Assembly (NCBI GenBank): GCA_012839845.1
Contig: DUMM01000118.1
Span: 1 to 57,305 of the forward strand
Direction of reading: 5' to 3'
Length of the DNA: 57,305 bases
From: Bacillota bacterium
Lineage (GTDB): Bacteria; Bacillota; Limnochordia; DTU087
The translations under genes were made by a program, and so were the position numbers. A model generated the notes under the pieces. That model searched no databases and was not told where the DNA came from. It was given only the letters and a program-made list of their open reading frames with translations. This document shows positions 573-35,428 of this stretch, piece after piece. Each line of letters begins with the position of its first letter. Positions within the stretch are counted from its first letter, which is position 1.

Positions 573-2183
573 CTAGTTCACAAAACCTAGAATCAATGCC
601 AGCACCGCAGCAATGGTGGCGATGTTAGCCGCGCTCTTCAGGCTTTGATTCTGCTTTTCGGCGTGAGCTTTATAACTGTTGAACTCGTCCCTCAACTCTT
701 GCAACTGGCGTTCCAGCCGCTGCTCCCGCATCAAAGCGGCATTAAGCTGGGCAGAAGACTGGGCCATTACCCGATCATCGACTGCGGCCAATGTAGTCTC
801 CGCTTCGTTGATCCGCTCCTGGAGCACGAAGACCGCTTCCTGCAGCTCTGCGACGTGATCCCGCAAATCGGCGAGATCTTTACTGTCAGCTGCCGCGCCT
901 TGCTGGAGGAGGTTTGTCCGCTTATCCAGAGCTGCGATCTTCTGCGATATGTTGGTCAGATCCGTCTGAACCGCCTCGAGACTTCTTACCAAATCTTGAC
1001 GGAGGTTGCTGACATCCTTCATCAACTGTCCGTCAGCGGAAGCCATGGCCTCTCCCTGTTTTTGGACCTGTTCCTTGAGTGCCAGCAGGTCCTGAGCCAG
1101 TGAAGCAGTCTCGTCGGTTCGAGTCTGCCTCTCCTGCGCAGCTGCCTGCTTCAACTGGCTGAGCTCCTCGGCAAGCTGGGCTTCCCTCTCCAAGCTCTTC
1201 TCCTGCCAGCTGGCCAATCCTTCTTCGACTGCGGAAAGCCGCTGTGCAACATCGGACAATCCCTCTTGTACTCTGTTGATCTCAGCTGCCAGCTCGGCAT
1301 CGCTTTCTTGCATCGCTTGCTGCAGGAGGCTCAAAGCTGCATCCCGCTCTGCGAAACTGCTCGCCACCTTTACACCTAAAGCCTCCTCCAAAGCCACCAG
1401 TGAGTCACTATGGAGAGCAAGCATCCGGGAGTGTTCATCCAGCTTTGCCTCTGCAGCCATAACGGCAGCATCGGTATCGGCCAGCGCTGCCGCCTGCTTG
1501 GCAACCTCATCTTCTAATCTTTGAATTCTGAGGCCTTGGTCGGCGGTCTGCCGGCCCAGTTGTGCATCAGCAGCATCCAACCTCTGAGCCGTATCGGCTA
1601 CCTGCTGCTGCAGGGCAGCAATCTCAGCTAAGATAGCAGCCGCTTGTTCCTGAATAGAGGTGCGGATAGCCGCGTCCTCCTGCTCCATCGTATCAATGAC
1701 CTTTGTCACGGTCTCATCTATCACTTGGACCCGACGCTGTGTCTCATCAACAGCAGCCGACAGCTGCTCTCTTTGGTTGTACCAGCGCACAAGTTCATCC
1801 CTAAACTCCGTGGATAAAGTCCGCAAAAGCTGGAGATCTTCCTGGGTTACACCCAGCCGTCCTTTCTCAATCTCAACCAGCAAGCGCCCGACTACGGAAG
1901 CCAATGTATACCTGTCGACGGGCCGCTGACCCTGAAAAGTCCCATCGCTGTACAGGGCAAGGTAGCCCTCCTGGACCAATTTCTGCACACCTTCATAGGC
2001 CCAATGGTCTTTAGGTACATCGCTGATGGGCTGCGCAGTATCTTGGGCTAAAGCCGAGCCCACCAGGCTTCCCAACATCACCAGCATGACCAGCACTGAA
2101 ATTCCTGCTCTCCGTACTCTCCTGAGCTCCATCTGTTCCCGCCCCCTGTCAGTCTTGTTTGCTCCTCGAGTTGTCATCGGCAC
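573..2183 (-). CDS. SLH-domain / long coiled-coil / C-terminal TM-anchor protein (Omp-alpha-like envelope tether)
   Basis: Signal peptide (ISVLVMLVMLGSLVGSALAQD). A single SLH motif (DVPKDHWAYEGVQKLVQEGYLALYSDGTFQGQRPVDRYTLASVV). About 400 aa of Q/E/A/L-rich heptad-like sequence. A hydrophobic C-terminus (ANIATIAAVLALILGFVN). Start is GTG at 2183, or ATG at 2177 or 2132. Confidence 0.8.
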   Translation of the reverse strand: MPMTTRGANKTDRGREQMELRRVRRAGISVLVMLVMLGSLVGSALAQDTAQPISDVPKDHWAYEGVQKLVQEGYLALYSDGTFQGQRPVDRYTLASVVGRLLVEIEKGRLGVTQEDLQLLRTLSTEFRDELVRWYNQREQLSAAVDETQRRVQVIDETVTKVIDTMEQEDAAIRTSIQEQAAAILAEIAALQQQVADTAQRLDAADAQLGRQTADQGLRIQRLEDEVAKQAAALADTDAAVMAAEAKLDEHSRMLALHSDSLVALEEALGVKVASSFAERDAALSLLQQAMQESDAELAAEINRVQEGLSDVAQRLSAVEEGLASWQEKSLEREAQLAEELSQLKQAAAQERQTRTDETASLAQDLLALKEQVQKQGEAMASADGQLMKDVSNLRQDLVRSLEAVQTDLTNISQKIAALDKRTNLLQQGAAADSKDLADLRDHVAELQEAVFVLQERINEAETTLAAVDDRVMAQSSAQLNAALMREQRLERQLQELRDEFNSYKAHAEKQNQSLKSAANIATIAAVLALILGFVN

Positions 2184-2189
2184 CCTTAC

Positions 2190-4223
2190 CTATCTGGTAA
2201 TGGTCACGGGTAACTCCATGGGTCCCAATTCGATCACCTGACCATTAGTGGTGACCAGCTTAGTCGCTGCCAGCTGAACCGAACCGGTACCTTCAGCAAG
2301 CGTCAAGAAACGAATTGAACATAGGTTGCCGGTTAATCGACCAGGTCCCAGCTGCGAAAGGCCTTGCAGTTTAACCCAAACTGTCCCCTGCACCTGCTGC
2401 ACATCTACCTCCATGGTAGCAGCATCCTTCACAGCGGCCAAAGGTGCGAGGGCTTCGCCCCGCTCTACTCCCAGCCGACCTCCCACTACTCGCAGCAGGT
2501 CTGCCGGAAACTTCAGGAAGAACTCTGCTGCTTCGATGTTCTTCAAGTTATAACCTTTAACAGCGATTTTTGCAGGTTCCCCGACCGTTGCGGGACTGGC
2601 CCCTTCCATGACAAGCCTGATCATCTGCGGCAGCTGCGGTATGTTGATGAATTCATTGACAATCACCGGTTCGGTGGCGCCGGATTCGACTATGACGGAA
2701 TACGGCAGACTATCGCTGGCCACATCAGTCGGAACTAGGAACCACTGAACCACGACGGACTCGCCGGGCCCTAAATCCCCGCTGAGCTTTGTCCGCCCCT
2801 CACCGGGGGCTAGCTGAAGTCCTAAGGGAGCCTGCCATTGAGCGTGAACCCACGGAGCATCCATCTCACCCACATTGGTAATGGTAGCCCGGACTGCAAA
2901 AGGCACAGGCTGCAGGCTTCCATCTTCGATCAAGAGGCGAGGCGGTGCGGAGACTTTCACCTGCAGCTCCGCCGGTTTGGCAATCTTTACCTGCCGCCGC
3001 ACTCGGTTCGGCTCGCTGTTGGCAGCCTCAACCCTGACCTCATATGAGATCTCGCCCGTAACCTCTTTGGCTACCTCTACCTGCCAGGCCACCTGCACCG
3101 ACCTACCTACATCCAGGTTGCCGAGGCTGCTGGTGGGCTCCTGGGCAGAGACGAGGGTTACCCCCTTAGGCAGTTGAATGGAGATCACGACATCCCTGGC
3201 CTCACCTTCCCCGGTGTTCTCGAGATAGGCGACGATTGGGAACCGTGTAGGCGCATCGGGAGCGTGGGACACCACAGCAGGTGAAGTAACTCCCAAGGAC
3301 AACTTTCCTGGGGCGATGGTTATGCCGCCGAGTCCATAGTAGGTGACCCAGGTAACACTTTCACCGGGTTCCAAGGTGACCGGGTTCCAAAACATGGCAA
3401 TTGCCGAATCCAGCTCAAACTCACCTTTCCGCAAAAACACGCGGCCGGGTTCAAAATCAAAATCCCAGATGCTTTCCGCTAATACTCCCCAGTTGGTGAA
3501 GTACACCCGATCAGGGGGCGTTACCCCCGGGCCCCGCAAAGTCCCTTGGGACATAACCTGCGGATCCGCAAGGGAATCGAAGGCCTGCCAAAACTCAGGT
3601 ATTGCCTCTCCGCTGAAGAAAGTATCGGTTGTTATGGCCTGCTGTTCTACCCTAAAGGGGGCGCCATCGTTGGCACCCAGCATTGTGTCCAGCATCAGCC
3701 GCATCGATACCCTATGGGAGACGGAGTCTTCATTTGTCAAGGTGTAGGCAATGCGAGCTGTGTCCTGCAGACCCGTGGTGCTGCTTCGGGTAAAGCTGAG
3801 TATTTGCTCAACCTTCACTGGTCCCAGTTTGTATACCGTGCTGATGGCATTCCCCTGGATGATTTCTGGCCCTGAGATCCGCTCGCCAAAAGGTCCCTGT
3901 CTGCCGGCAGAGGTGCGGGTAGGACCGCCAAAAACGTAACTTGCACCATCCACTTGAATAGTAGTGTAAGAGGTCCATGGGTTTGCCATGCCGTATACCA
4001 AAGGCTTGTTTTCATCGCCTATTCTGTCGGGGTCTCCGCCGGTGGTACTGACAGAAAACCGGCCGGTATTCTCCTCGCCTGCATTGACGATGATGGAGAT
4101 ATAATCATTGGCTATGATGATGTTGTTGTTGCCAATGCTGTCTTCAACTTCTGCATAGGCATTCGCCGTACCACAGGCAATCAACATCCCCACGACCAGG
4201 GTAACTGCCAACCAGCGCCGCAT
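2190..4223 (-). CDS. Predicted lipoprotein or secreted multidomain surface protein: unknown ~300-aa N-terminal domain, two CARDB/NEW3-like Ig-fold modules, and a C-terminal cohesin-like domain
   Basis: Signal peptide with lipobox LIAC (MRRWLAVTLVVGMLIACG). CARDB-like stretches (AYLENTGEGEARDVVISIQLP..., ATITNVGEMDAPWVHAQW...). The C-terminal ~140 aa resemble cohesin (FFLKFPADLLRVVGG...GNLCSIRFLTLAEGTGSV). Domain names come from pattern memory only. Confidence 0.6.
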   Translation of the reverse strand: MRRWLAVTLVVGMLIACGTANAYAEVEDSIGNNNIIIANDYISIIVNAGEENTGRFSVSTTGGDPDRIGDENKPLVYGMANPWTSYTTIQVDGASYVFGGPTRTSAGRQGPFGERISGPEIIQGNAISTVYKLGPVKVEQILSFTRSSTTGLQDTARIAYTLTNEDSVSHRVSMRLMLDTMLGANDGAPFRVEQQAITTDTFFSGEAIPEFWQAFDSLADPQVMSQGTLRGPGVTPPDRVYFTNWGVLAESIWDFDFEPGRVFLRKGEFELDSAIAMFWNPVTLEPGESVTWVTYYGLGGITIAPGKLSLGVTSPAVVSHAPDAPTRFPIVAYLENTGEGEARDVVISIQLPKGVTLVSAQEPTSSLGNLDVGRSVQVAWQVEVAKEVTGEISYEVRVEAANSEPNRVRRQVKIAKPAELQVKVSAPPRLLIEDGSLQPVPFAVRATITNVGEMDAPWVHAQWQAPLGLQLAPGEGRTKLSGDLGPGESVVVQWFLVPTDVASDSLPYSVIVESGATEPVIVNEFINIPQLPQMIRLVMEGASPATVGEPAKIAVKGYNLKNIEAAEFFLKFPADLLRVVGGRLGVERGEALAPLAAVKDAATMEVDVQQVQGTVWVKLQGLSQLGPGRLTGNLCSIRFLTLAEGTGSVQLAATKLVTTNGQVIELGPMELPVTITR

Positions 4224-4280
4224 TAATCACCAGCCCCCTAACTGTACCGTCGATGACTTTGGCGGTTCATCGCTGAACTC

Positions 4281-5189
4281 TCACTCATTTCGCACATACC
4301 GAACGCCGTCGTACATAATCGATACCCTGAAGTCCGGCGGGCCGCTAAAAGAAACCGTTATTGACAGGATATAATCTTCCAGCAGCGGCTCCATGCGCCA
4401 TCCGTTTTGGATGGTCAACCGCGCGACTTCATCTAAACTTGCTGTTCCAGAAGACTGAATGATGTCAATGCGGGTTGCTCTAGTAGACCCTTTCGGCACA
4501 TACGCCTCCAGTTTAACGGTACCTGCCAGACCTTCGTTAATGGCATTCTTGGGGTACTGAATCCGCCCACCGCCTGACACTAAAGTGCTTGCTGCCGGTA
4601 GTGGCGGCAGCGGCGGCGGCTGCGGCGTTCTTTCTTCCTCCAAGCCGCTCTCTGCCGAAGTATTCGAACTGCTTGTCTCACCGGCGTCTGCAGAATTACC
4701 TGCGGCCATGACAGCTTCTTGACCGTGTTCACTGGTGAGGACTTGCTCACCGTTCCTATCCGGCTGGGCCAAAGCCTGCTCGCTGGTTGCGGGTTGCTGC
4801 TCCGGCACAATTCTAGTATCGGCAGCTTTCACATCCTCCTGCGGAGGCGGCGTGGGATCCTGAGGCTTTGGTGCAGCTTCTGGTTGAGTCTGGGTTACCT
4901 GAGTCTTAGCTGTCTCAACAGGCTCCGGTTCTTGTTTCGCTGGCGTGGCGGTCTGGCGGTTGGGTGTCTGCTGCTGGGGCTGCTGTCTGGTCACCTGAGT
5001 TCTGGCAGGCTGCTGCACCTCTATGGGTACAACAGAAATAATCCCGCCGCCCGGACCGGCAAAAAGACCAGGTCCCACCGCAAAATCCCAGCGGGGAAAG
5101 ACAAAAAACAGCATGGCGTGGAGAATTAGTGAGATGAAAACATAAGCCCCAAAGGACCGGTCCAAGTCATCGCCGTTGTACACTGCCAC
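4281..5189 (-). CDS. tonB: TonB-family energy transducer
   Basis: N-terminal TM with a conserved His (FISLILHAMLFFVF). Pro/Gln/Glu-rich spacer (QEPEPVE...PKPQDPTPPPQ, PQPPPLPPLP). C-terminal TonB_C-like domain (IQYPKNAINEGLAGTVKLEAYV...). Confidence 0.8.
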   Translation of the reverse strand: MAVYNGDDLDRSFGAYVFISLILHAMLFFVFPRWDFAVGPGLFAGPGGGIISVVPIEVQQPARTQVTRQQPQQQTPNRQTATPAKQEPEPVETAKTQVTQTQPEAAPKPQDPTPPPQEDVKAADTRIVPEQQPATSEQALAQPDRNGEQVLTSEHGQEAVMAAGNSADAGETSSSNTSAESGLEEERTPQPPPLPPLPAASTLVSGGGRIQYPKNAINEGLAGTVKLEAYVPKGSTRATRIDIIQSSGTASLDEVARLTIQNGWRMEPLLEDYILSITVSFSGPPDFRVSIMYDGVRYVRNE

Positions 5190-5246
5190 ACCACCTCCCC
5201 TCCTCCAGCTGCAGCAGTATTAATAATGATCAATGGGTTTACCAAG

Positions 5247-5657
5247 CTATCTGCCCCGCGGTTCAACTGCAAGACCAAAACGATATCCTCCCAGCTGCCG
5301 AACAACATCCATCACTTGTACTACATAGTCATAGCGAGCCTCTCGGTCGGCCTTAATGATCACAAAAAGGTCTGGCCGCTTGTCCAGGGCGCTTTTAACT
5401 TCTGACCTGAGGGTATTGGTGTTGACCTGACGCTCGCCCAAAAACATCCGCCCATCCTTGGCTATGGAGATAGTGATCTGGCTGCTGGCCTGTCTATCGT
5501 AACTAGCTGCCCTGGGCAGTTCCAAATTCAAACCTGCGGGATGGGTCTTGAAAGTAGTAGCGAGCATAAAAAATACCAAGACAGAGAAAATAATGTCAAT
5601 TAGAGGCACGATTTGAACTGTTGGTTTCTTGTTGCGACCCATTCGACGGGCTATCAT
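5247..5657 (-). CDS. exbD: ExbD/TolR family biopolymer transport protein
   Basis: 136 aa. N-terminal TM contains the conserved Asp (VPLIDIIFSVLVFFML), followed by a periplasmic-type domain. The start overlaps the exbB stop by 1 nt. Confidence 0.85.
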   Translation of the reverse strand: MIARRMGRNKKPTVQIVPLIDIIFSVLVFFMLATTFKTHPAGLNLELPRAASYDRQASSQITISIAKDGRMFLGERQVNTNTLRSEVKSALDKRPDLFVIIKADREARYDYVVQVMDVVRQLGGYRFGLAVEPRGR

Positions 5658-6271
5658 CAGACATCACCCCTGGACTCGAAGATGGCCAACAGCTCAGACG
5701 CTCGCTTGTTGATATCAACCACCAAACGGTCTATGAGTCCGGAAAGATAGGAATAGATCAACGTGCCGGGGATAGCAATAACCAGACCGGCTGCAGTAGT
5801 GATCAGGGCCTCTGCAATCCCTGCGCTCAACGCGAGGGTGTCGTCCAAGCCGCCTATCGCCGTGATTACCTGAAAACTATTGATAATACCAGTCACTGTG
5901 CCCAAGAGTCCGAGCAAGGGAGCAGCGGTGATGATTGCGTCTAGAAGCCCCAATCGGCGTTCCATCCTATAAACTTCTTCACTAGCCGCTTCCTCCAACC
6001 GCTCCCGGATAAACTGCTTATCCTTATCGTAATGGGCAATGCCCGCCGCCAGCACCGCTGCAACGGGGCCTCTCGTCTTCTTGGCTATCTGGATGGCCTC
6101 CAGGATTTTCCCCTGCTGAAGGGCCAGTTTAATATCATCCATCAAATCTTCGGTGTCAACTCGGCAGCGAAGCAGGTAGACCAGTCTTTCTAAAGAGACA
6201 GCTACCATCAGAACAGAACACAGCAGTAAAGGGATCATTACCGGGCCGCCTCGGATAATTAAGTCCAGCAT
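5657..6271 (-). CDS. exbB: MotA/TolQ/ExbB family proton channel
   Basis: Three TM segments and the family motif PLLGLLGTVTGIINSF. I chose ATG at 6271 (MLDLIIRGGPVM) because GGAGG lies 8 nt upstream. The ORF-track start is 6298. Confidence 0.85.
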   Translation of the reverse strand: MLDLIIRGGPVMIPLLLCSVLMVAVSLERLVYLLRCRVDTEDLMDDIKLALQQGKILEAIQIAKKTRGPVAAVLAAGIAHYDKDKQFIRERLEEAASEEVYRMERRLGLLDAIITAAPLLGLLGTVTGIINSFQVITAIGGLDDTLALSAGIAEALITTAAGLVIAIPGTLIYSYLSGLIDRLVVDINKRASELLAIFESRGDV

Positions 6272-6486
6272 TGTAATTACCTCCACTCCGTCCCACATTC
6301 ATTGGGTAAGACTATTCGACAATCACGTACCATATCCTTCCTTGCTGTTATCTTGAGGGAAATCCTATGATAATTTCCTCTAAGGGCCTACGCACTTCCC
6401 TGATTTTCCCCCTTTGGCATTTTCGACAGGTTGAAAGATAACTCCTGCCGCCAGAACCCCATGCAGAACAAACAGGGACACGACAC

Positions 6487-15088: not shown

Positions 15089-16264
15089 TTACCGTTCCTG
15101 GTGTTTGACCCGACCGTAGCGGCCTCCGCCTCCTGCGGCCACGGCTAGGCGGCCTTCTCTGGCAGCAGCAATATTCTCTGCTATCTTAGGACCTACCACC
15201 TCTGCCAGGTCTTCAACGGACGCTTCATGGAGGATGGACATTTCCGTGCCGAAGGTTCCCAGCAGTCTTGTCAGGGTCTTCTTGCCGACACCGGGAATAA
15301 ACTCCAGGGGTACCTGGTGGATGTAAGGAGGACGTCTGTCAGGATGGACAGGTTCTTGTTCATCGGCGATGGCGGTGATGCGGTCCAGTACGCCGACTAC
15401 CACCTTGTTGCTGCCGCACTTCGGACATTGACCCACAGGCGGCGGGCCCTCCACCACTGCCTCACATTGGAGGCAAAAAGTGCGGTGGTACTTTCCCAAA
15501 CGGGGATCCAGTCCATAGTTGGCCAGAATGCGGTTTTCCGGATCGCCGGCCAATGACCTGCAAAGATGAGCAAAGTCAGGCTTTGCCAGCTCCAGCTTAT
15601 TGTATTCCCGAGCAATTTTGGGAAGGGAATGGGCATCGGAATTGCTCAGGAACTGTACGCTGGCAAGCTCGTGGAGCATATCCGCAAGGTACGTATCAGC
15701 ACTTAGACCAAGCTCCAAAGCGGAAAATTCAAGACCGAGTTCGGCAATACGGTTTACGCAACTTCCGTAAACGCTCTTGAAGGGGGTAAAGGCGTGGGCA
15801 GGCAGGAAGATCCCCCCAAGCTCGTTTATCACAAAATCATGGACTTGGTGGGTCTCTAGATCTGCCCGTTGGCAGCTGAGGGATATGTTGGTGACTGCTC
15901 GAGACAGGAACCTGCTCAACTCCTCCATGGCTTCAAAGGTCGGGGTAAAGGCCAAGAAGTGGGCATTTCCCCCTCGAGGTCCCGGGAGTTCAATCTCTGC
16001 TCCCAGCAGCAAGGTTACCTTTCCTCGGTAATCCAAACCTCCCCCTGGAAGGGCTGTCAGTTCGCCCTGTTCCAACAGGAGCCGCAGGTCATCCAATACA
16101 GGCGGGGAAGCACAGTCGACTATGCCGGCCATCTGTATTCCTTTGCGTTCTACGCACTCCTTGAGGATTCTGTCTACCGTCAAGTCAGACGATGCGGTGA
16201 TTTTGACAGGGGCTCCGCATCCTGCCCGGCCAATGTGGATGTGTAGGTCAGCAAAAAGGATCAA
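15089..16264 (-). CDS. Endonuclease Q-like protein (TIGR00375 family; PHP-like domain, Zn-ribbon, helix-hairpin-helix)
   Basis: ADLHIHIGRA metal site, CxxC...CxxC (CLQCEAV...CPKCGS), and an HhH motif (IPGVGKKTLTRLL). TTG start at 16264. Confidence 0.7.
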   Translation of the reverse strand: MILFADLHIHIGRAGCGAPVKITASSDLTVDRILKECVERKGIQMAGIVDCASPPVLDDLRLLLEQGELTALPGGGLDYRGKVTLLLGAEIELPGPRGGNAHFLAFTPTFEAMEELSRFLSRAVTNISLSCQRADLETHQVHDFVINELGGIFLPAHAFTPFKSVYGSCVNRIAELGLEFSALELGLSADTYLADMLHELASVQFLSNSDAHSLPKIAREYNKLELAKPDFAHLCRSLAGDPENRILANYGLDPRLGKYHRTFCLQCEAVVEGPPPVGQCPKCGSNKVVVGVLDRITAIADEQEPVHPDRRPPYIHQVPLEFIPGVGKKTLTRLLGTFGTEMSILHEASVEDLAEVVGPKIAENIAAAREGRLAVAAGGGGRYGRVKHQER

Positions 16265-16448: not shown

Positions 16449-17558
16449 CTAGCTGCCGTTTAACCAGCTAGCCGCCAGCCACCCTGCTGCACCCCCAGCG
16501 CGAAAAAAGGCTGGATCCTCTGACGGACCCCTTCCCATGGACGTGACTTTTACTTTGTATTGCTGCAATAGCTCCAAGGTCCGGTCTCCCTCTACCCAGT
16601 GGATGCGGTGGCGCTGGTTGAGGCCCAGCTCTAGAACTTGCTGCCGCAGCTTTTCACCCTCGCGGCCGTTAAGCTGCGGCAAAGGCAGGTCGCAGACAGT
16701 ATGGCACAGCCGCATCAAGGCGGTGATGGTATGGTGACTCAGACCCTGGTGGCGCGTTCTCTTGTCTGCAAAACTGACCCTGGGCACCGCTATTGCCCTT
16801 CCCCCCAAAGCGTTAACTGCATCCAGGATCGGTGCTGTTTCCAGAGCCGTTGTGCCAAAGGTTGTTCCCGTGCCGACAACACCAGGTCCCATAGCAACAA
16901 GGCACGCATCGGCTTTGGCCACGTGTCTTGCCGCCAGCAGGCCGGAGTAGATGCTCACAGCCTCCAGGTCGCCTCCGAAGGCGTGCCCAACTGTTATGGT
17001 AGCGACAATGAACCCCTGGTCTTTCAGGGAAGCTGCCAATTTGCTGAAAGCTAGGGGCAAAGCAGCCCCGTCAGTCATAATGTATGCCAATCGGAAAGGT
17101 CGATGACTAAAGTGATGAAAGACTACTGCAGCAGGAGCGATGAGGCTGTGCAGGCTTGCCACGATGACCGGCATGCCCCCCAAGGAGTCTGCCTCGCGAA
17201 GAATCCCATGGTGCGGGCTGTTTTCCTCTTCCACCGCCAAGACGGCAAATTGCAGGGGAGTGTAGCGGAGTTTCATGATGTGGCCGGCAAGCGCAGACCC
17301 ACTTGGCTTTTCAGATTCCGTATCAAGACCCTTGGGCACACACGCGATGACAAAATGCACTCCCCCAGTCCCCAACTCCAAGTCCACGGCGGTGGTGTTT
17401 AGTTCCACTTGGTCTTCCGGAACCACGTCCCCCTGCAGCTGCCGGTAATTGATGGCGGGGACCAGCTTCCCTCTTACCTCCACTTCCAGTTCCTGAATAA
17501 CTTGCGTTGTCTTGTTGATCCGGCGCACTATACCCCATATGCGGTTAAGTGTGGCCAT
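16449..17558 (-). CDS. DUF3866-family protein (uncharacterised)
   Basis: 369 aa from ATG 17558 (MATLNRIWGIVRRI...). The family assignment is from memory of similar sequences that are commonly adjacent to TIGR00375 genes. Confidence 0.55.
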   Translation of the reverse strand: MATLNRIWGIVRRINKTTQVIQELEVEVRGKLVPAINYRQLQGDVVPEDQVELNTTAVDLELGTGGVHFVIACVPKGLDTESEKPSGSALAGHIMKLRYTPLQFAVLAVEEENSPHHGILREADSLGGMPVIVASLHSLIAPAAVVFHHFSHRPFRLAYIMTDGAALPLAFSKLAASLKDQGFIVATITVGHAFGGDLEAVSIYSGLLAARHVAKADACLVAMGPGVVGTGTTFGTTALETAPILDAVNALGGRAIAVPRVSFADKRTRHQGLSHHTITALMRLCHTVCDLPLPQLNGREGEKLRQQVLELGLNQRHRIHWVEGDRTLELLQQYKVKVTSMGRGPSEDPAFFRAGGAAGWLAASWLNGS

Positions 17559-17703
17559 CCCCTCGAACCCACCTCCGCAGTCAAAGAGCACACTTTGCAT
17601 TAGCATTGCCGGAAACAGTGTAGGACAATACTTGAGAAAAGGAACTGACTCAAACGACCGAGTGCCCAGATGGTCAGCGCCTGAGTTTCAGCAAAATGCC
17701 CGG

Positions 17704-28705: not shown

Positions 28706-29170
28706 CTAAAACTCGATAGCCAGGTTGGCCTTTGCCACCTGGTCCCGAGGAATCCTAGTAATTTCGCCCCCCGACTCAACCACCACAGCGCCATCCTCCA
28801 GCCCCAGCAGCCTTCCTTCCCACACCTTCTTGCCTTGGTAAGGGGCATAGGTCCTGATATGTACCAGCCGTCCTGCAAACCTGGTAAAGTGCTCATCACG
28901 GGTTAGCGGCCTTTCTAGACCAGGCGAAGACACCTCCAGGGAATAGCTGCCTGGGATGGGATCTACCTCATCCAGCTTGGAGCTCAGCTGACGGCTCACC
29001 CTTTCGCAATCATCCAGGTTAACCCCACCCTCCTTGTCGATAAACACCCGCAAGATCCAGTCAGGACCTTCTTTGACGTACTCGACATCCACCAATTCCA
29101 ACTTTGGATAATCCTCCAAGATCTCCTCTGTCAGCTGAACAGTGATCCGCTCTATTTCCTGTCGAGACAT
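28706..29170 (-). CDS. rimP: Ribosome maturation factor RimP
   Basis: 154 aa. LRVFIDKEGGVNLDDCERVSRQLS...YSLEVSSPGLERPL. Confidence 0.93.
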   Translation of the reverse strand: MSRQEIERITVQLTEEILEDYPKLELVDVEYVKEGPDWILRVFIDKEGGVNLDDCERVSRQLSSKLDEVDPIPGSYSLEVSSPGLERPLTRDEHFTRFAGRLVHIRTYAPYQGKKVWEGRLLGLEDGAVVVESGGEITRIPRDQVAKANLAIEF

Positions 29171-29418
29171 TTTCCAGCCTCCATTTCCTTATTTAGCACA
29201 CCACCCGGCCAATATATGTAAAAAGACGCTCATTAAGGGTCAATGTGAAACGGGGAAGCATATCTGTGAGTACAGGCCGCAGGTTTCCCCTTTTACTACG
29301 AAAGAGTGGGAATTCCCCACTCTTCCAACAAACCTCCGGCGCTGTGAAAAATTCAGAGCCGCGCTTTGCCCCACATGAATCTGAGCATAGGGCATGCTCC
29401 GCGGCACTTACCAGTGTT

Positions 29419-29447
29419 AGTATACCACTTTGCTGTATTATTGACAA
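29419..29447 (-). promoter_or_regulatory. Sigma-A promoter of the rimP-nusA-infB operon
   Basis: Minus strand reads TTGTCA (29442-29447), a 17-nt spacer, then TGgTATACT (-10 at 29419-24). This predicts a ~240-nt leader. Confidence 0.65.
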
Positions 29448-29495
29448 GGCCTTCAGCTGAAAGAAACACGCCAAAAATCCAAACTGCGGTCATCT

Positions 29496-32400
29496 TTAGA
29501 AAAGAGACAGCTGGGAGGTCTTTGGCAACCCTGCCAGTGCGCCGTAGGCTGCCAGGGTTTCGATCACCGTACGGCTGACACCGCACCTCATTCTAATATC
29601 CTCCCACGAGGTAAAGGGCCCCGCCTTTCTGCCTTCAGCCAGCATCAGTGCTGCACTTTGCCCCACACCGGGCACAATTGCCAGCGGCGGCCTGAGTTTC
29701 CCGTTCTCAATGGTGAAGCGGGTGGGATGGGACCTGTACAGGTCCACGGGGAGAAACTCTATCCCCCGCAGCATTGCCTCCATGACCAGTTCAGCCACTG
29801 TCAGGAGGTTCTTTTCCTTGGCGGTGGCACTGGCGCTTCTGGCGGAGATATCGGCGACAATCTGCTTTACATCCTGAAGACCGCCTCTGATCAGTTGAAT
29901 GTCGAAGGCATCGAGTCGGACAGAAAAATAGGCGGCGTAATACGCCAGAGGATAATGTACTTTGAAGTAAGCTATCCGGAAAGCCATGGTGACATACGCC
30001 ACAGCATGGGCCTTGGGAAAAAGATAGCTGATCCTTCTACAGGAGTCGATGTACCACTGCGGTACTCCCACTCTTTCCATGGCCTCCACGTCCTCAGGCT
30101 TTAGTCCTTTGCCCTTTCTAACCTTTTCCATAATGGCAAAGGCAGTTGCCGGCTCCATTCCCAGCTGAATGAGGTAGTTCATGATATCATCCCGGGTAGC
30201 GATGGCCTGGCTGAGATTGGCAACGCCGTTCTTGATCAAGTCTTGGGCGTTATTGGTCCACACGTTGGTACCGTGGGAGAACCCGCTGATCCGGACCAGC
30301 TCTCCGAATGACTTCGGCCGGGTTTCTTCCAGCATCTGCCTGACAAATCTTGTCCCAAACTCAGGCACACCGAGAGTACCTACAGTGGTGCCCAGGTCAT
30401 CGGGGCTGACCCCTAAGGCCTCTACGCTGGAGAAGATGCTCATGGTGGCAGGATCATCCAGTGGTATGCTTAGGACCGATACCCCAGTCATATCCTCCAA
30501 CATTCTGAGCATTGTGGGGTCGTCATGGCCGAGAATGTCCAGCTTCACCAAATTGTCGCTGATGGCGTGGTAATCAAAGTGGGTGGTAATGGTACCGCTG
30601 GCAGCATCGTTGGCAGGATACTGCACCGGCGAGAACTCATTAATGTCTCGGCCCTCCGGAACCACGATCATGCCGCCGGGATGCTGGCCGGTGGTCCGCC
30701 GTACACCGGTACAGCCTCTGACGAGGCGATTGATCTCTGCGGTTCTGGCCGTTCGGCCTTTGCTTTCCAAGTATTTGCATACAAAGCCGTAGCTGGTCTT
30801 TTCCGCGAGAGTGCCGATGGTACCCGCGCGGAACACGTGGTCCTTGCCGAAAAGCTCCTCCGTGTATCTGTGGACACAGGCCTGGTATTCCCCGGAGAAG
30901 TTGAGATCTATGTCCGGTACCTTTTCTCCGTGGAAACCCATAAAGACCTCGAAGGGGATATCAAAGCCTAGTTTTCGGTATAGGGCTCCACATTGACAGT
31001 GTTTGTCCGGCAGATCGACACCGGTTTGAACCGAACCGTCGGTGATGAACTCCACATGATGGCACTGGGGACAAACATAATGGGGCGGCAGGGGGTTAAC
31101 CTCCGTGACTCCGCAAAGGGTGGCCACCAGGGAGGACCCCACAGAACCTCGGGAACCTACCAGATAGCCGTCGCTTAGGGATTTTTGCACCAACTTGTGG
31201 GCGATGAGATACAAGACAGCAAAACCGTTGCCGACGATGGCCTTTAGTTCCTTCTCGATCCTCTCTGCCACAAGCTGAGGTAAAGGGTCTCCGTACAGCT
31301 TTCTGGCATTGGCGTAGGTCATCTCAGTGATCTGCTCCTCAGCCCCTTCGATTCTCGGAGCGTGGAGGCCGCTGGGTATGGGCCGCACCTCTTCAATCAT
31401 GTCCGCGATACTGTTCGGGGCATAGATCACCACTTCTTTGGCCGTCTCTTCGCCGAGATAATCAAATTCCGCTAGCATTTCTGCAGTAGTCCGGAAAAAC
31501 AAGGGTGCTTGCCTTTCTACATCTTCATAGCCCTGAGCGGCCAGGAGAACGCGGCGGTAGATTTCATCCCATGGGTTCAGGAAGTGGACATCGCAGGTAG
31601 CCACCACTGGTTTCCCCAGGCGCTTGCCTAGGGCAACGATGCGGCGGTTTATCTCTTTTAGGTCGTCGTACGACTGGACCTTGTCACCGATCATGAAGGC
31701 GTTGTTGGCCAAAGGCTGAATTTCCAAGTAATCGTAAAAAGCGGCTTTTTTCAGCAGCTTGTCTTCATCGATACCCTGGAGGACTGCTTGATAGACCTCC
31801 CCCGCTTCGCACGCCGAGCCGATGAACAGCCCATCCCGATATCTTTCGATCAATTGGCGGGGCAGTCTGGGCCGACGGTAGAAATACTGCAGGTGAGATA
31901 TGGATACCAGTTTGTATAGGTTGTACAGTCCCTGTTGGTTCTTAGCCAAGAGTACAATGTGGTAAGACTGAGCTTTAGGATCATCTCCGTCGACAAGATA
32001 GCCCTCAATCCCGTAAATGACCTTAATACCAGCTTTCTTGCCGGCATAGTAGGCCTCGGGAAAAGCCTGAACAACTCCATGATCCGTAATGGCTACGGCT
32101 TTGTGGCCCCAGCTTGCGGCCAGCTGAATCACTTCTTCGGTATCCACCGTCCCGTCCATAGCCGACATCTTGGTATGTAGGTGGAGTTCCACCCGCTTTT
32201 CGGGGGCCTCGTCCCGGCGGATAAACTCTGCCGGCGGCTCTTGAGTTTCTATATCATTGGGCAGGATGATGAGCTCCTGGGTGTAGCGGTCCCATTGAAC
32301 GGGCCCCCTCACCCGCAGCCACATACCAGTGCTTATTCTCTCCGCCAGCCGGGGAGCATTCTCCTCCTCGAACAACTTGAGGGTAATGGAATCCCGATAG

Positions 32401-33008
32401 TCGGTGATATCGATCATCAAAAGGCGCCGACCGCTGCGCAGCTCCCGTTCTTCCAGATTGATCACTTCCCCGGCAGTGACGAAAGAGCGCTCTTCATCAG
32501 TTATCTCAGCTATGGAACGGGGCTCATCTTTAATGGGGCGTCCCTTCAGCACGCTTTCCGAGCCTTCGAGCGCAGCATCAGCTGCTTCCGGGGAGGGACC
32601 TTCAGCCATCTGCAAGCTGGCTCGCTCCATGATGTAAGAAATATAGGTAGCTTCGTCGGCAAGCAGCAGATCATCGACAGACTGCCTTTCTGGATGGTTA
32701 TTTCCGTTGACGACAACATCAAAGGAAACGGAACGCACCCCCGGCAGCAGTTCAACCAGTTTGCGGCTCAATGAGTCCAGTTCCAAGGGGCACAGATCTT
32801 CTCCGGATGTGAGGCAGATCTTCCACTCTTGACGCTGGCAGTTGACCAAGACTTTTTCTACAACAGCTTGGGCGGCCTTTCCTTCGCAACTTACCGGAAG
32901 TTGAGCCGCCCGCAGGAAATCTGATAGGCATTGTCCCTTAACTTGGGGAGTCACCACGTATACAGTTGCGTTGCTAGCCACTTTCAGAATCCTTTCTGGT
33001 TGCAGCAA
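29496..33008 (-). CDS. polC: DNA polymerase III PolC-type alpha subunit lacking the 3'-5' exonuclease insertion
   Basis: 1170 aa. OB region (RSGRRLLMIDITDYRDSITLKLF), PHP (VELHLHTKMSAMDG, ITDHG), polymerase core (GSRGSVGSSLVA, Zn finger CPQCHH...CQCG, PDIDLNFSGEYQ), and the PolC C-terminus SQLSLF. No DEDDh block lies between IEGYLVDGDD and YHIVLLAKN. Confidence 0.9.
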   Translation of the reverse strand: MLQPERILKVASNATVYVVTPQVKGQCLSDFLRAAQLPVSCEGKAAQAVVEKVLVNCQRQEWKICLTSGEDLCPLELDSLSRKLVELLPGVRSVSFDVVVNGNNHPERQSVDDLLLADEATYISYIMERASLQMAEGPSPEAADAALEGSESVLKGRPIKDEPRSIAEITDEERSFVTAGEVINLEERELRSGRRLLMIDITDYRDSITLKLFEEENAPRLAERISTGMWLRVRGPVQWDRYTQELIILPNDIETQEPPAEFIRRDEAPEKRVELHLHTKMSAMDGTVDTEEVIQLAASWGHKAVAITDHGVVQAFPEAYYAGKKAGIKVIYGIEGYLVDGDDPKAQSYHIVLLAKNQQGLYNLYKLVSISHLQYFYRRPRLPRQLIERYRDGLFIGSACEAGEVYQAVLQGIDEDKLLKKAAFYDYLEIQPLANNAFMIGDKVQSYDDLKEINRRIVALGKRLGKPVVATCDVHFLNPWDEIYRRVLLAAQGYEDVERQAPLFFRTTAEMLAEFDYLGEETAKEVVIYAPNSIADMIEEVRPIPSGLHAPRIEGAEEQITEMTYANARKLYGDPLPQLVAERIEKELKAIVGNGFAVLYLIAHKLVQKSLSDGYLVGSRGSVGSSLVATLCGVTEVNPLPPHYVCPQCHHVEFITDGSVQTGVDLPDKHCQCGALYRKLGFDIPFEVFMGFHGEKVPDIDLNFSGEYQACVHRYTEELFGKDHVFRAGTIGTLAEKTSYGFVCKYLESKGRTARTAEINRLVRGCTGVRRTTGQHPGGMIVVPEGRDINEFSPVQYPANDAASGTITTHFDYHAISDNLVKLDILGHDDPTMLRMLEDMTGVSVLSIPLDDPATMSIFSSVEALGVSPDDLGTTVGTLGVPEFGTRFVRQMLEETRPKSFGELVRISGFSHGTNVWTNNAQDLIKNGVANLSQAIATRDDIMNYLIQLGMEPATAFAIMEKVRKGKGLKPEDVEAMERVGVPQWYIDSCRRISYLFPKAHAVAYVTMAFRIAYFKVHYPLAYYAAYFSVRLDAFDIQLIRGGLQDVKQIVADISARSASATAKEKNLLTVAELVMEAMLRGIEFLPVDLYRSHPTRFTIENGKLRPPLAIVPGVGQSAALMLAEGRKAGPFTSWEDIRMRCGVSRTVIETLAAYGALAGLPKTSQLSLF

Positions 33009-33014
33009 AGTCTC

Positions 33015-33725
33015 TTATCTGAATCCCAAAACCCTTAAAATCTCCCAATACATCTTGAGACGGTTGCGTGCACCTGGAATCAGTCCTTGCTTTTCCTCTT
33101 TCATGAGGTGGGACACGTCTTTCAGGAGCACCTTTTCCACCCGGATGCCGTTGGCAGCCACGTACCTAGAGATAGCTACCTCCACGCCGTACCGGCTGTC
33201 TTCCAGCTGGGGTATGTTCTCCAGGATTTCCCGGCGGATAGCCCTCTGACCTGAAAGAAATGGCGTCAGCTTTTGAGCCAAAGTGGTAGGAGCCCGTCCG
33301 CCGGCGAAGATCCCTACGGTCATGTCTGTTCTGCCGGAAATAACCGGTTCCAGCAGGTCCAGGCAATGGGCTTCCGTAAGCCCCACAAGGTCTGCATCTA
33401 AGAACAACAAAATGTCTGCTGTGGTGGCCTTGGCCCCAGCTTTCATGGCTCCCCCTTTGCCCCGGTTGGGATACAGGTTGATAACCCTAGCTCCTAAGCT
33501 GTTGGCCACCTCAGCTGTGCGATCCGAGGACCCATCATTGACTACAATCACTTCATCGATGGCCTCGCATCTTTGCACCACCTGGAGTATGCTGCCGACG
33601 GTATGCTCCTCGTTGTAAGCGGGAATAACGGCAGCAACCCTGACTTTGGCACCTGCTGCATTTTCGCTAGCCTTTGCACCTGCGTTTGGATTCTGCGATG
33701 GCGCTCGCGATTCTGTCTTGAACAT
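33015..33725 (-). CDS. Family 2 glycosyltransferase (small, soluble type)
   Basis: [10 protein letters not shown]...[12 protein letters not shown]...FLDADL (the DxD motif). It lies 6 nt upstream of polC. The start is uncertain because the ORF overlaps the proS 3' end by 59 nt. Confidence 0.75.
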
Positions 33726-35397
33726 GACTCACCACTTCATTCAATGAGATCAAATACTCCTCTCCGGTGGCCCGCCAGCGGACTTCGACTTGTCCCTCTG
33801 CCAAGCCCCGAGGTCCGACGGTAATCCTGATGGGGAATCCGATTAAATCGGCATCTTTGAATTTTACGCCCGGACGCTCATCCCGATCGTCGATCACCGC
33901 CTCCACTCCAGCTGCGGTGAGTTCCGCGTAAACCCTTTCAGCCGCGGTCCTTTGCTGTTCATCCCGATAATTGACCGGAACAACATCCACATGATAGGGG
34001 GCAACACTGACCGGCCAGCATATACCGTGTTCATCATGATACTGCTCAATGATGGCTGCCATTGTGCGGCTGATTCCTATACCGTAGCAGCCCATAATCA
34101 GCGGTCGCTCAACGCCATCCTCGTCGGCAAAAGTAGCGCCTAAGGGCTTGCTGTACTTGGTTCCAAGCTTGAAGACTTGTCCAACCTCAATACCTCTAGC
34201 ACCTTGCAGAATCCCTTTGCCGCACGGACATGGATCTCCAGGCTGTGCCTTGCGGATATCTATTACCATATCGGGGACAAAATCGCGTCCCGGCTTTACA
34301 CCCTGCAGGTGAACGTCCACTTTATTGCCACCTGTGATGCCGCTTTCGATGTTCATCACAGCTGGGTCGGCGATGATCTTGCAGTTTTTCAAGCCTACGG
34401 GGCCCGCAAATCCCCGGGGAGCACCGGTCACTCTTTCGATGGTTTCATCGTCAGCTAGTTCTACTTCAAGGCAGCCAACTGCCCTGGCAAGCTTGATTTC
34501 ATTCACTTCGTGATCTCCCCGCAGCACAGCGGCTACCACTTGCTCGCCGCCTCGATAAATCAGAGTCTTCATCATTTCACTCGCGGGCCTGTTGAAAAAC
34601 TTCTCCAATTCCTCTATGGTCTTTACACCCGGAGTTGCCACTTCAGCCAGCTGGTCCTCTCGACCCGTCGGTTCAGCAGGCGGCGTGAGGCACCGGGCCT
34701 TCTCCACATTGGCGGCATAATCGCAGGTGCTGCAGTAGACAATTTCTGCCTCGCCGGCATCGGCGATAGCCATGAACTCGTGGGTTTGATTTCCCCCAAT
34801 TGCTCCCGGGTCCGCCTCAACCGGTCTGAAATTCAGACCGCAGCGGGCAAAAACCCGCTCATAGGCGTGGAACATTGCCCAATAGCTTTTATCCAGTCCC
34901 TCCTCATCCCGGTCAAAGGAGTAGAGGTCCTTCATAATAAACTCTCTGCCGCGCATGACTCCAAATCGGGGGCGGATCTCATCGCGGTACTTGTTCTGAA
35001 TCTGATACAGCATAAGGGGAAGCTGCCTGTAGGACCGCACTTCGTTTCTGACCAAGGCAGTTATGATCTCTTCGTGGGTAGGGCCCAAGCAAAACTGCCT
35101 GTCGTTGCGGTCGCTCAGCTTAAACATCTCCTCGCCGTAATCATCCCAACGGCCTGTCTCGTGCCATAGTTCCGCAGGCTGGATAATGGGCAGCAGCACT
35201 TCCTGACCGCCGGCAGCATCCATCTCTTCCCGTACGATCTGCGTGATTTTCTGCAGTACCCGAAACCCCAAGGGCAGATAAGTATAGATTCCAGCTGCTA
35301 CCTTGCGCATCATCGCGGCCCGCAGCATTAATTGGTGGCTTGCGATTTCCGCTTCTGCAGGAACTTCCCGCAAAGTCGGCATCAAGAGCTTCGACAT
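33667..35397 (-). CDS. proS: Proline--tRNA ligase (bacterial type with INS editing domain)
   Basis: [44 protein letters not shown]. Class II motifs are present. ATG at 35397. Confidence 0.95.
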
Positions 35398-35428
35398 CCT
35401 CAATCTCAACACCCCCGAAATCAAAACA

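Follow-up and report, generated by a model that had tools for sequence, protein, structure and literature searches.

PolC, the alpha subunit of DNA polymerase III in many Firmicutes, has as its hallmark a DEDDh 3'-5' exonuclease within the PHP domain, and members without this exonuclease are already known: the architecture was described in 2014, and the definition of PolC was then broadened to include exonuclease-less members. In that survey, 6% of PolCs were without the Exo insertion. Apart from a single additional copy in Thermotogae, these were exclusively from Clostridia and Negativicutes, the genomes in question always encode both PolC and DnaE1, and the summary table marks the internal exonuclease of the PolC+DnaE1 system as present "except in 16%" (Timinskas, Balvociute, Timinskas and Venclovas, 2014; NAR 42:1393; PMC3919608). 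Among the related DnaE1-type polymerases, the PHP domain can itself be an exonuclease: it is the replicative proofreader of Mycobacterium tuberculosis DnaE1 (PMC5636811) and is active in Thermus Pol III (as cited in PMC3666897), and an "active" PHP motif of nine metal ligands, HHDHEH[C/H]DH, has been defined (PMC12926913) and tabulated (PMC3666897). Deletion of the exonuclease from Staphylococcus aureus PolC (residues 415-609) leaves an enzyme with a polymerization rate constant (kpol) of ~330 s-1 (PMC3656037). Here, we describe a natural exonuclease-less PolC encoded on contig DUMM01000118.1 of a Bacillota bacterium (57,305 nucleotides (nt), the whole stretch of DNA analysed, hereafter the window). 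It is a complete PolC that is under selection and looks expressed; its polymerase site is intact, the DEDDh domain is absent, and its relatives point to the PHP metal centre as the likely proofreader.

An open reading frame (ORF) of 1170 amino acids plus stop at 29496..33008 (-), beginning with TTG, encodes the PolC-type DNA polymerase III alpha subunit. The protein scores 1518.1 bits against the NCBIfam PolC equivalog NF001688 (cutoff 873) and 1400.9 bits against TIGR01405 (cutoff 1043), the DnaE models all score far under their own cutoffs, and the domain order is that of PolC, with the OB fold before PHP, followed by the Pol3 core with its Zn finger, the helix-hairpin-helix (HhH) region, and a C-terminal clamp motif. 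With ~60% identity, it aligns in one block (residues 163-1170, 1229 bits) to 3f2b, a Geobacillus PolC crystallisation construct from which the exonuclease was removed. An earlier reading of the sequence alone (the sequence-only reading) had taken the ORF for a collinear PolC, which the Pfam domain order and the equivalog scores bear out, and every motif that it listed (HLHT, ITDHG, the Zn finger, and the C-terminal SQLSLF) is found in the ORF. Database annotation routinely names the proteins of this clade PolC-type DNA polymerase III.

The canonical DEDDh exonuclease is missing from the window protein by every measure used. Pfam gives no match to PF00929/RNase_T even at E<=1. The PolC equivalog match is split, resuming at residue 345 with profile position 611 after skipping ~190 profile positions, and the full-length PolC structure 9qpc aligns in two blocks (query ..347 with chain ..437, and query 337.. 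with chain 627..). When the window protein and its 119 best database homologues are aligned with MAFFT (120 sequences; the close alignment), the segment from GIEGY to YH is 12 amino acids long in the window, 10-30 in 97 sequences, and 210-212 in 23; this distribution is cleanly bimodal, and the 23 sequences with the long segment carry PF00929. Comparing lengths of 12 and 210-212 amino acids, ~199 amino acids are therefore missing from the window PolC, with boundaries at residues 340-347. A hidden Markov model (HMM) built from the 23 exonuclease domains of the close alignment found nothing when run against all six reading frames of the 57-kb window (best E 0.38), so there is no frameshifted remnant and no adjoining PolC-type exonuclease gene; a frameshifted or cryptic remnant in or near polC is accordingly rejected. 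The sequence-only reading had called the domain cleanly absent and placed a direct junction of the PHP halves at nt ~31962-31997. These independent comparisons concur on the absence, and the linker, residues 340-347, occupies nt 31968-31991. The same deletion is shared by relatives: 97/120 sequences of the close alignment are exonuclease-less, as are 53 of 57 related polC loci from a genome scan with one genome per species, the exonuclease being present in only four (Lachnospiraceae, Eubacteriales, Tissierellia, and Sneathia). The parts of the gene and its immediate neighbours are as follows.

29496..33008 (-): polC coding sequence, 1170 amino acids plus stop; start TTG 33008 or GTG 32981
32514..33008 (-): N-terminal region, shortened, ~residues 1-165; 168 amino acids before the OB/DEER motif
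32247..32477 (-): OB fold, residues 178-254 (Pfam); N-terminal to PHP as in PolC, unlike DnaE
31992..32189 (-): N-terminal half of PHP, residues 274-339, with ligands H276, H278, D285, H310, and E335
31968..31991 (-): 8-residue hairpin loop VDGDDPKA, residues 340-347, the site of the ~200-amino-acid DEDDh domain in canonical PolC
31449..31967 (-): C-terminal half of PHP, ~residues 348-520, with ligands H350, C400, D473, and H475
30519..31334 (-): polymerase core, palm and thumb, residues 559-830 (Pfam), with catalytic D699, D701, and D824
30990..31073 (-): Zn finger, C646-x2-C649 ... C671-x-C673 (alignment)
30099..30521 (-): fingers domain, residues 830-970 (Pfam)
29523..29765 (-): tandem helix-hairpin-helix (HHH_6), residues 1082-1162 (Pfam)
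29499..29513 (-): beta-clamp-binding motif QLSLF, residues 1166-1170, C-terminal
28706..29170 (-): rimP, first gene of rimP-nusA-infB, downstream of polC (synteny)
33667..35424 (-): proS, upstream of polC (synteny)
33015-33725: small GT2 glycosyltransferase gene between proS and polC

The fold of the PHP domain is predicted with confidence across the junction. An AlphaFold2 model of residues 262-560 has a mean predicted local distance difference test (pLDDT) of 93.3 and a predicted template modelling score (pTM) of 0.90, and in it the strands 329-339 and 348-355 are linked by the 8-residue loop with pLDDT >90. Foldseek superposes this model on 3f2b with a template modelling (TM) score of 0.88 over 301 columns and on full-length PolC (9qpc/9qrn) with a TM score of 0.94 over 503 columns, of which ~200 are gap columns at the exonuclease. 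The Pfam PHP match spans residues 274-421, and all nine PHP metal ligands are kept in the window (HHDHEHCDH) and are invariant in 120/120 sequences of the close alignment. The catalytic residues D699, D701, and D824 are likewise invariant in a broader set of 152 diverse PolCs, described below.

The gene is also intact in the environment and under constraint. The 601 bases around the junction are complete in at least 20 public sequencing runs from more than 10 studies, covering compost, soil, manure, and anaerobic digesters and including two metatranscriptomes, and in four runs, of which two are metatranscriptomes, contigs cross 31400-32600 without an indel or joint. The single difference in the crossing contigs is a shared G>C at 31537, where the four runs read C and the window G, as either a population variant or a consensus error of the window. 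Against the four closest genomic relatives (80-84% amino acid identity), the ratio of nonsynonymous to synonymous substitution rates (dN/dS) is 0.07-0.10, an approximate figure with dS near saturation, and polC is under strong purifying selection. Gene order points the same way. The window reads motAB, fliL, fliMN, fliP, fliR, flhB, flhA, flhF, a MinD-like ATPase gene, and a sigma factor gene, then rpsB, tsf, pyrH, frr, uppS, cdsA, an AI-2E transporter gene, dxr, rseP, and ispG, and finally proS, the small GT2 glycosyltransferase gene, polC, rimP, nusA, infB, nrnA, truB, ribF, and pnp, an order that is essentially that of the polC region of Bacillus subtilis. By this match, the locus is the orthologous replicase locus (proS-polC-rimP-nusA-infB).

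How the exonuclease came to be missing can be judged from a wider sample of PolCs. The window protein was searched against 1.84 billion representatives and the 150 best were kept (PolCs with a mutual difference >50%); the final set of 152 full-length sequences draws on 119 representatives of at least 1100 amino acids, 12 named or close relatives from the initial database search, seven translations of genome loci, and the window's own PolC. At the junction, the insert is 5-34 amino acids long in 36 of the 152 and the canonical domain of ~200 amino acids in 101, while the other 15 carry inserts of 58-287 amino acids whose match to the exonuclease HMM is weak or nil. Several of these 15 have destroyed ExoI motifs, reading FSATMVS, SIHIGTTG, LIDINTTG, or AVSLKTTG instead of DxETTG. 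The remnant-bearing sequences (among them the representatives P0142, P0141, P0167, P0219, P0194, P0133, P0144, P0201, P0241, P0182, P0234, and P0212), look like a decay series from exonuclease-containing to exonuclease-less PolC. The backbone of a neighbour-joining tree (969 columns, 100 bootstraps) is weak, and we therefore rely only on pairs at the tips with high bootstrap. Exonuclease-containing and exonuclease-less sequences are sisters with bootstraps of 98-100 in Sneathia (L054/P0215), in Lachnospiraceae (L048/P0135), and in the pairs P0129/P0126 and P0134/P0157, and the exonuclease-containing P0159 is sister to two exonuclease-less sequences with a bootstrap in the same range. Over the whole tree, the exonuclease-less sequences fall into 21 separate units, and the most parsimonious history has 18 changes. 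Because of the nested sister pairs and the decay intermediates, these data argue for a loss that is secondary and recurrent, and not for a primitive absence.

The state of the PHP metal centre differs between the classes of PolC. The nine-ligand motif is intact in 35/36 exonuclease-less and 14/15 remnant-bearing PolCs (the fifteenth is N-terminally truncated), and in only 58/101 exonuclease-containing ones (exonuclease-less versus exonuclease-containing, Fisher p=2e-6, or 2e-5 with Asn allowed at ligand 8, a substitution that in this sample occurs in exonuclease-containing PolCs only). For 20/21 exonuclease-less units, the nearest exonuclease-containing relative is PHP-intact as well. From these counts, the DEDDh domain has been lost essentially only where PHP was intact, with no later decay of PHP, the pattern to be expected if two proofreaders were first redundant and the enzyme then came to depend on PHP. 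The lone exception is P0215 (1178 amino acids), the sister of the Sneathia PolC L054 (bootstrap 99), which is exonuclease-less with its PHP ligands destroyed (HRSLENGDQ); it is a possibly fusobacterial sequence that has neither recognisable proofreader.

The sequence-only reading had left proofreading to a DnaQ-like protein in trans, to the PHP domain, or to reduced fidelity, and among these, the comparative data favour PHP. The DEDDh exonuclease, normally inserted in the PHP beta-hairpin, would have been lost in this lineage and the hairpin closed by the 8-residue loop, a loss that the redundancy of two proofreaders would have permitted. The 3'-5' editing of PolC products would then fall mainly to the polymerase's own PHP trinuclear metal centre, with the nine ligands in the Taq/M. 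tuberculosis configuration HHDHEHCDH, and the replisome would probably consist of PolC and DnaE1, as in other Firmicutes outside the class Bacilli. By analogy with M. tuberculosis DnaE1 and Thermus Pol III, PHP-based editing is most likely what the window PolC uses, and taken as a whole, the account of a functional orthologous PolC that secondarily lost DEDDh through redundancy, edits mainly by PHP, and probably works beside DnaE1 seems to us somewhat better supported than not. For the stronger proposition, that the PHP centre is the sole proofreader in cis and that PolCs reverted from DEDDh to PHP proofreading ~20 independent times in this sample by way of dead and shrinking exonuclease remnants, we would put the chances at a little under even. 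If it is true, natural exonuclease-less PolCs would be the first PolCs whose PHP domain works as an exonuclease.

Several considerations weigh against PHP-based editing. The counts behind the association between exonuclease and PHP ignore phylogeny, the sequences are metagenomic representatives without taxonomy, and the tree backbone beneath the pattern is weakly supported. The closest exonuclease-containing relatives show the same invariance of the nine ligands, so their conservation may serve another role, for example, in stability, or as a pyrophosphatase, as proposed for Escherichia coli DnaE (PMC4822814). No PHP exonuclease activity was detected in Geobacillus PolC (PMC3666897), an enzyme with Asn in the place of ligand 8, which is D473 in the window, and we found no biochemical study of a natural exonuclease-less PolC in the literature. 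Finally, DnaE1, DnaQ, and a second polC were sought only within the 57-kb window, which is the whole contig, and in the related loci.

Proofreading could instead come in trans, from a standalone DEDDh protein resembling DnaQ/epsilon or from the PHP domain of a co-resident DnaE1, with the PolC PHP serving a structural purpose or other chemistry. Editing across polymerases has a precedent in B. subtilis, where the PolC exonuclease edits DnaE products in trans. Candidate partners would not be scarce: bacterial proteomes hold on average more than three standalone DnaQ homologues (PMC12926913), PolC always occurs alongside DnaE1 or DnaE3, and genomes that pair PolC with DnaE1 encode a DnaE1 whose PHP site is perfect and whose surface for epsilon binding is conserved (PMC3919608); the undetected PHP activity of Geobacillus PolC would fit this account as well. 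However, the 57-kb window contains no DEDDh domain (exonuclease HMM, and Pfam and NCBIfam scans of 44 ORFs), and at the 53 exonuclease-less loci, polC has no PolC-exonuclease-like ORF within 10 kb, a search whose narrow, PolC-specific HMM could miss divergent DnaQs. With that same reservation about divergent DnaQs, a standalone PolC-exonuclease-like gene near polC is rejected for the window and the 53 loci. A second C-family polymerase gene (dnaE or polC) is likewise absent from the window and the 57 related loci, which is uninformative for the whole genome. Proofreading in trans also leaves unexplained why the PHP site of exonuclease-less PolCs is almost never degraded, as against 43% of exonuclease-containing ones, and we consider it unlikely.

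PolC might also have been demoted, with DnaE1 as the main high-fidelity replicase and an exonuclease-less PolC working unproofread in a limited or specialised role and the loss of its exonuclease reflecting a relaxed need. This was raised by Timinskas et al., whose exonuclease-less PolCs are all in genomes with a fully equipped DnaE1 and who note that some Clostridia have DnaE1 alone (PMC3919608), and the shortened N-terminal region of the window protein would be in keeping with it. Yet a dN/dS of ~0.08, invariant catalytic, Zn-finger, and clamp-binding residues, the canonical genomic position, and the presence of the gene in metatranscriptome assemblies together suggest a heavily used enzyme, and the PHP ligands have been kept from decay. 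We think such a demotion quite unlikely.

A further alternative is that the exonuclease-less form is ancestral and that this PolC never gained the DEDDh insertion. DnaE, the sister group, is without the insertion, several deep Bacillota lineages and candidate division FCPU426 have exonuclease-less PolCs, and the poorly resolved tree backbone gives this idea some room. But exonuclease-less sequences are nested as sisters of exonuclease-containing ones in at least five places with bootstraps of 98-100, the decayed inserts (dead ExoI motifs and shrunken remnants of 58-190 amino acids) sit at exactly the same site, and the repeated gain of one domain at one loop that 18 parsimony changes would imply is implausible, so that we reject ancestral absence as highly improbable. 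As for an artefact, whether from a collapsed assembly, a pseudogene, or an extra copy that is not orthologous, nothing that we found speaks for it and the chance is negligible: independent contigs from four runs cross the junction without indels or joints, at least 20 runs contain it, 97/120 aligned sequences have the same architecture, the gene is under purifying selection in the canonical synteny, and neither the misjoin nor the paralogue that the sequence-only reading had worried about came to light, polC being at its canonical position with no obvious paralogue and no second C-family polymerase in the window or the 57 loci.

The protein differs from canonical PolC at its N-terminus as well. 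The stretch before the OB/DEER motif is 168 amino acids long, compared with a median of 232 (range 213-289) in exonuclease-containing relatives, and the shortfall of 267 amino acids against canonical PolC consists of ~199 from the exonuclease and ~64 from the N-terminal domain. The part of the N-terminal domain that was lost is probably subdomain NII. Pfam finds no match to NI or NII (PF14480, PF11490) in the window protein, and an NI-like pattern in its N-terminal region is conserved among relatives; the N-terminal domains of PolC are known to be poorly conserved (PMC3919608). Elsewhere in the protein, the four Zn-finger cysteines are conserved among aligned relatives, and the second pair, at residues 671-673 (30990-31001 (-)), reads C-Q-C (CxC) and not CxxC, a deletion of one residue that is common to 12/120 aligned sequences, the window included. 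In the clamp motif, for which the consensus is QLxLF, Q1166 and F1170 are invariant and L1169 nearly so among aligned relatives.

The start codon of polC is ambiguous between TTG at 33008 and GTG at 32981. The TTG sits 6 nt past an upstream stop codon; the GTG, at residue 10, is preceded by GAAAGGA. At the position of the TTG, the relative at locus L002 lacks a start codon, yet more distant relatives have ATG there and keep the peptide LERIL. The public gene call for the same contig (P0001, 1044 amino acids) begins at Met127 and removes the conserved N-terminus, and thus begins too far downstream.

Around polC, an Rfam scan of the window gave no matches, and a scan for promoters and terminators gave consensus-level matches alone, no more than in shuffles. 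The 325-nt gap between polC and rimP (29171-29495 (-)) contains a good sigma-70-like site, TTGTCA-17-TATACT with a TG extension, at 29447-29419, which is plausibly the promoter of rimP-nusA-infB, although sites in the region are no more frequent than in shuffles. Downstream of pnp are two conserved genes, one for a DUF3866 protein (16449-17606 (-)) and one for a 391-amino-acid protein (15089-16264 (-)) whose sole match is a C-terminal HhH_5 motif. Further along, the stretch at 573-6298 (-) encodes an SLH-domain protein (573-2183), a 677-amino-acid protein, a protein with a TonB C-terminal domain (4281-5189), and ExbB/TolQ (5657-6298). NCBIfam has no match for the three large proteins of this stretch, and the 677-amino-acid protein has faint DUF11/NEW3 matches only.

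The TonB, ExbB/TolQ, and SLH genes, a set of the outer-membrane type for energy transduction, fit a diderm, Limnochordia-like organism, and the presence of sigF/G and spoIIM in the window indicates that it is a spore-former. The source is an uncultured Limnochordia-like Bacillota lineage from anaerobic digesters and compost. The closest polC loci (80-84% identity) belong to the biogas-reactor metagenome-assembled genomes (MAGs) AS15tlH2ME_178, AS09scLD_362, and AS09scLD_252 and to Clostridiales bacterium DTU087, followed by Limnochordia MAGs, Candidatus Darwinibacter acetoxidans, Limnochordales, and three candidate division FCPU426 MAGs. PolC is usually held to be confined to Firmicutes, Fusobacteria, Tenericutes, and Thermotogae; the three MAGs labelled FCPU426, not Bacillota (loci L044, L045, and L050), encode an exonuclease-less PolC with intact PHP ligands and 49-54% identity to the window. 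One MAG (DAIQRD01, CTOTU40582) contains two exonuclease-less polC loci, L005 and L007, with 72% and 69% identity to the window, reflecting either a mixed bin or a real duplication. Among cultured named species, Limnochorda pilosa (1211 amino acids) and Thermanaeromonas toyohensis (1210 amino acids) have the exonuclease-less architecture.

Natural exonuclease-less PolCs are natural experiments on whether the PHP domain of a PolC can proofread, and they bear on the division of labour between PolC and DnaE1 in Firmicutes outside the class Bacilli and on how redundant proofreaders get lost. The comparative pattern, in which loss is recurrent, falls on a PHP-intact background, and passes through intermediates, yields a concrete testable prediction, for which L. 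pilosa and T. toyohensis are suitable cultured organisms. On a minor practical side, PolC-targeting antibiotics and models of fidelity presume the canonical architecture.

Compared with known systems, the window PolC is nearest to the exonuclease-less PolCs of Timinskas et al., with which it shares all other domains, the lack of DEDDh in PHP, a conserved PHP site, and an origin in Firmicutes outside Bacilli. It differs in lineage, being Limnochordia-like, a lineage that we did not see named in a paper that assigns the variant to Clostridia and Negativicutes; nearest to it are biogas-reactor MAGs, Ca. Darwinibacter, and L. pilosa. Its N-terminal region, too, is reduced. Canonical PolC (B. subtilis, S. 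aureus, Enterococcus; PDB 9QPC) belongs to the same equivalog HMM family and agrees with the window protein in domain order (OB-PHP-Pol3-HhH), in having the Zn finger and the clamp motif, and in synteny (proS-polC-rimP-nusA), but carries the ~200-amino-acid DEDDh proofreader, a longer N-terminal domain, an often degenerate PHP site, and a DnaE3 partner. In architecture, the window protein is the natural equivalent of the engineered delta-Exo PolC constructs, in which the exonuclease was excised at the same PHP hairpin and which are active polymerases, fast in vitro; the single-block alignment to 3f2b (1229 bits) and the TM score of 0.88 for the PHP model reflect this likeness. Those constructs, however, have a man-made GSGSG-type linker in place of a natural 8-amino-acid loop and are without the whole N-terminal domain, and the Gka PHP, with Asn at ligand 8 instead of the Asp (D473) of the window, showed no exonuclease activity. 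M. tuberculosis DnaE1 and Thermus Pol III alpha (PMC5636811, PMC3666897) share with it the nine-ligand site HHDHEHCDH and the lack of DEDDh in the polypeptide; they are DnaE1-type enzymes, with the OB fold after HhH, a C-terminal domain, and no Zn finger, and their PHP exonuclease is demonstrated, whereas that of the window PolC is inferred. The window thus adds a member and a further, Limnochordia-like lineage to exonuclease-less PolCs and not a new kind of polymerase. The recurrent loss, the decay intermediates, and the association between exonuclease and PHP are not spelled out in the literature that we searched, and they are modest extensions of what is known.

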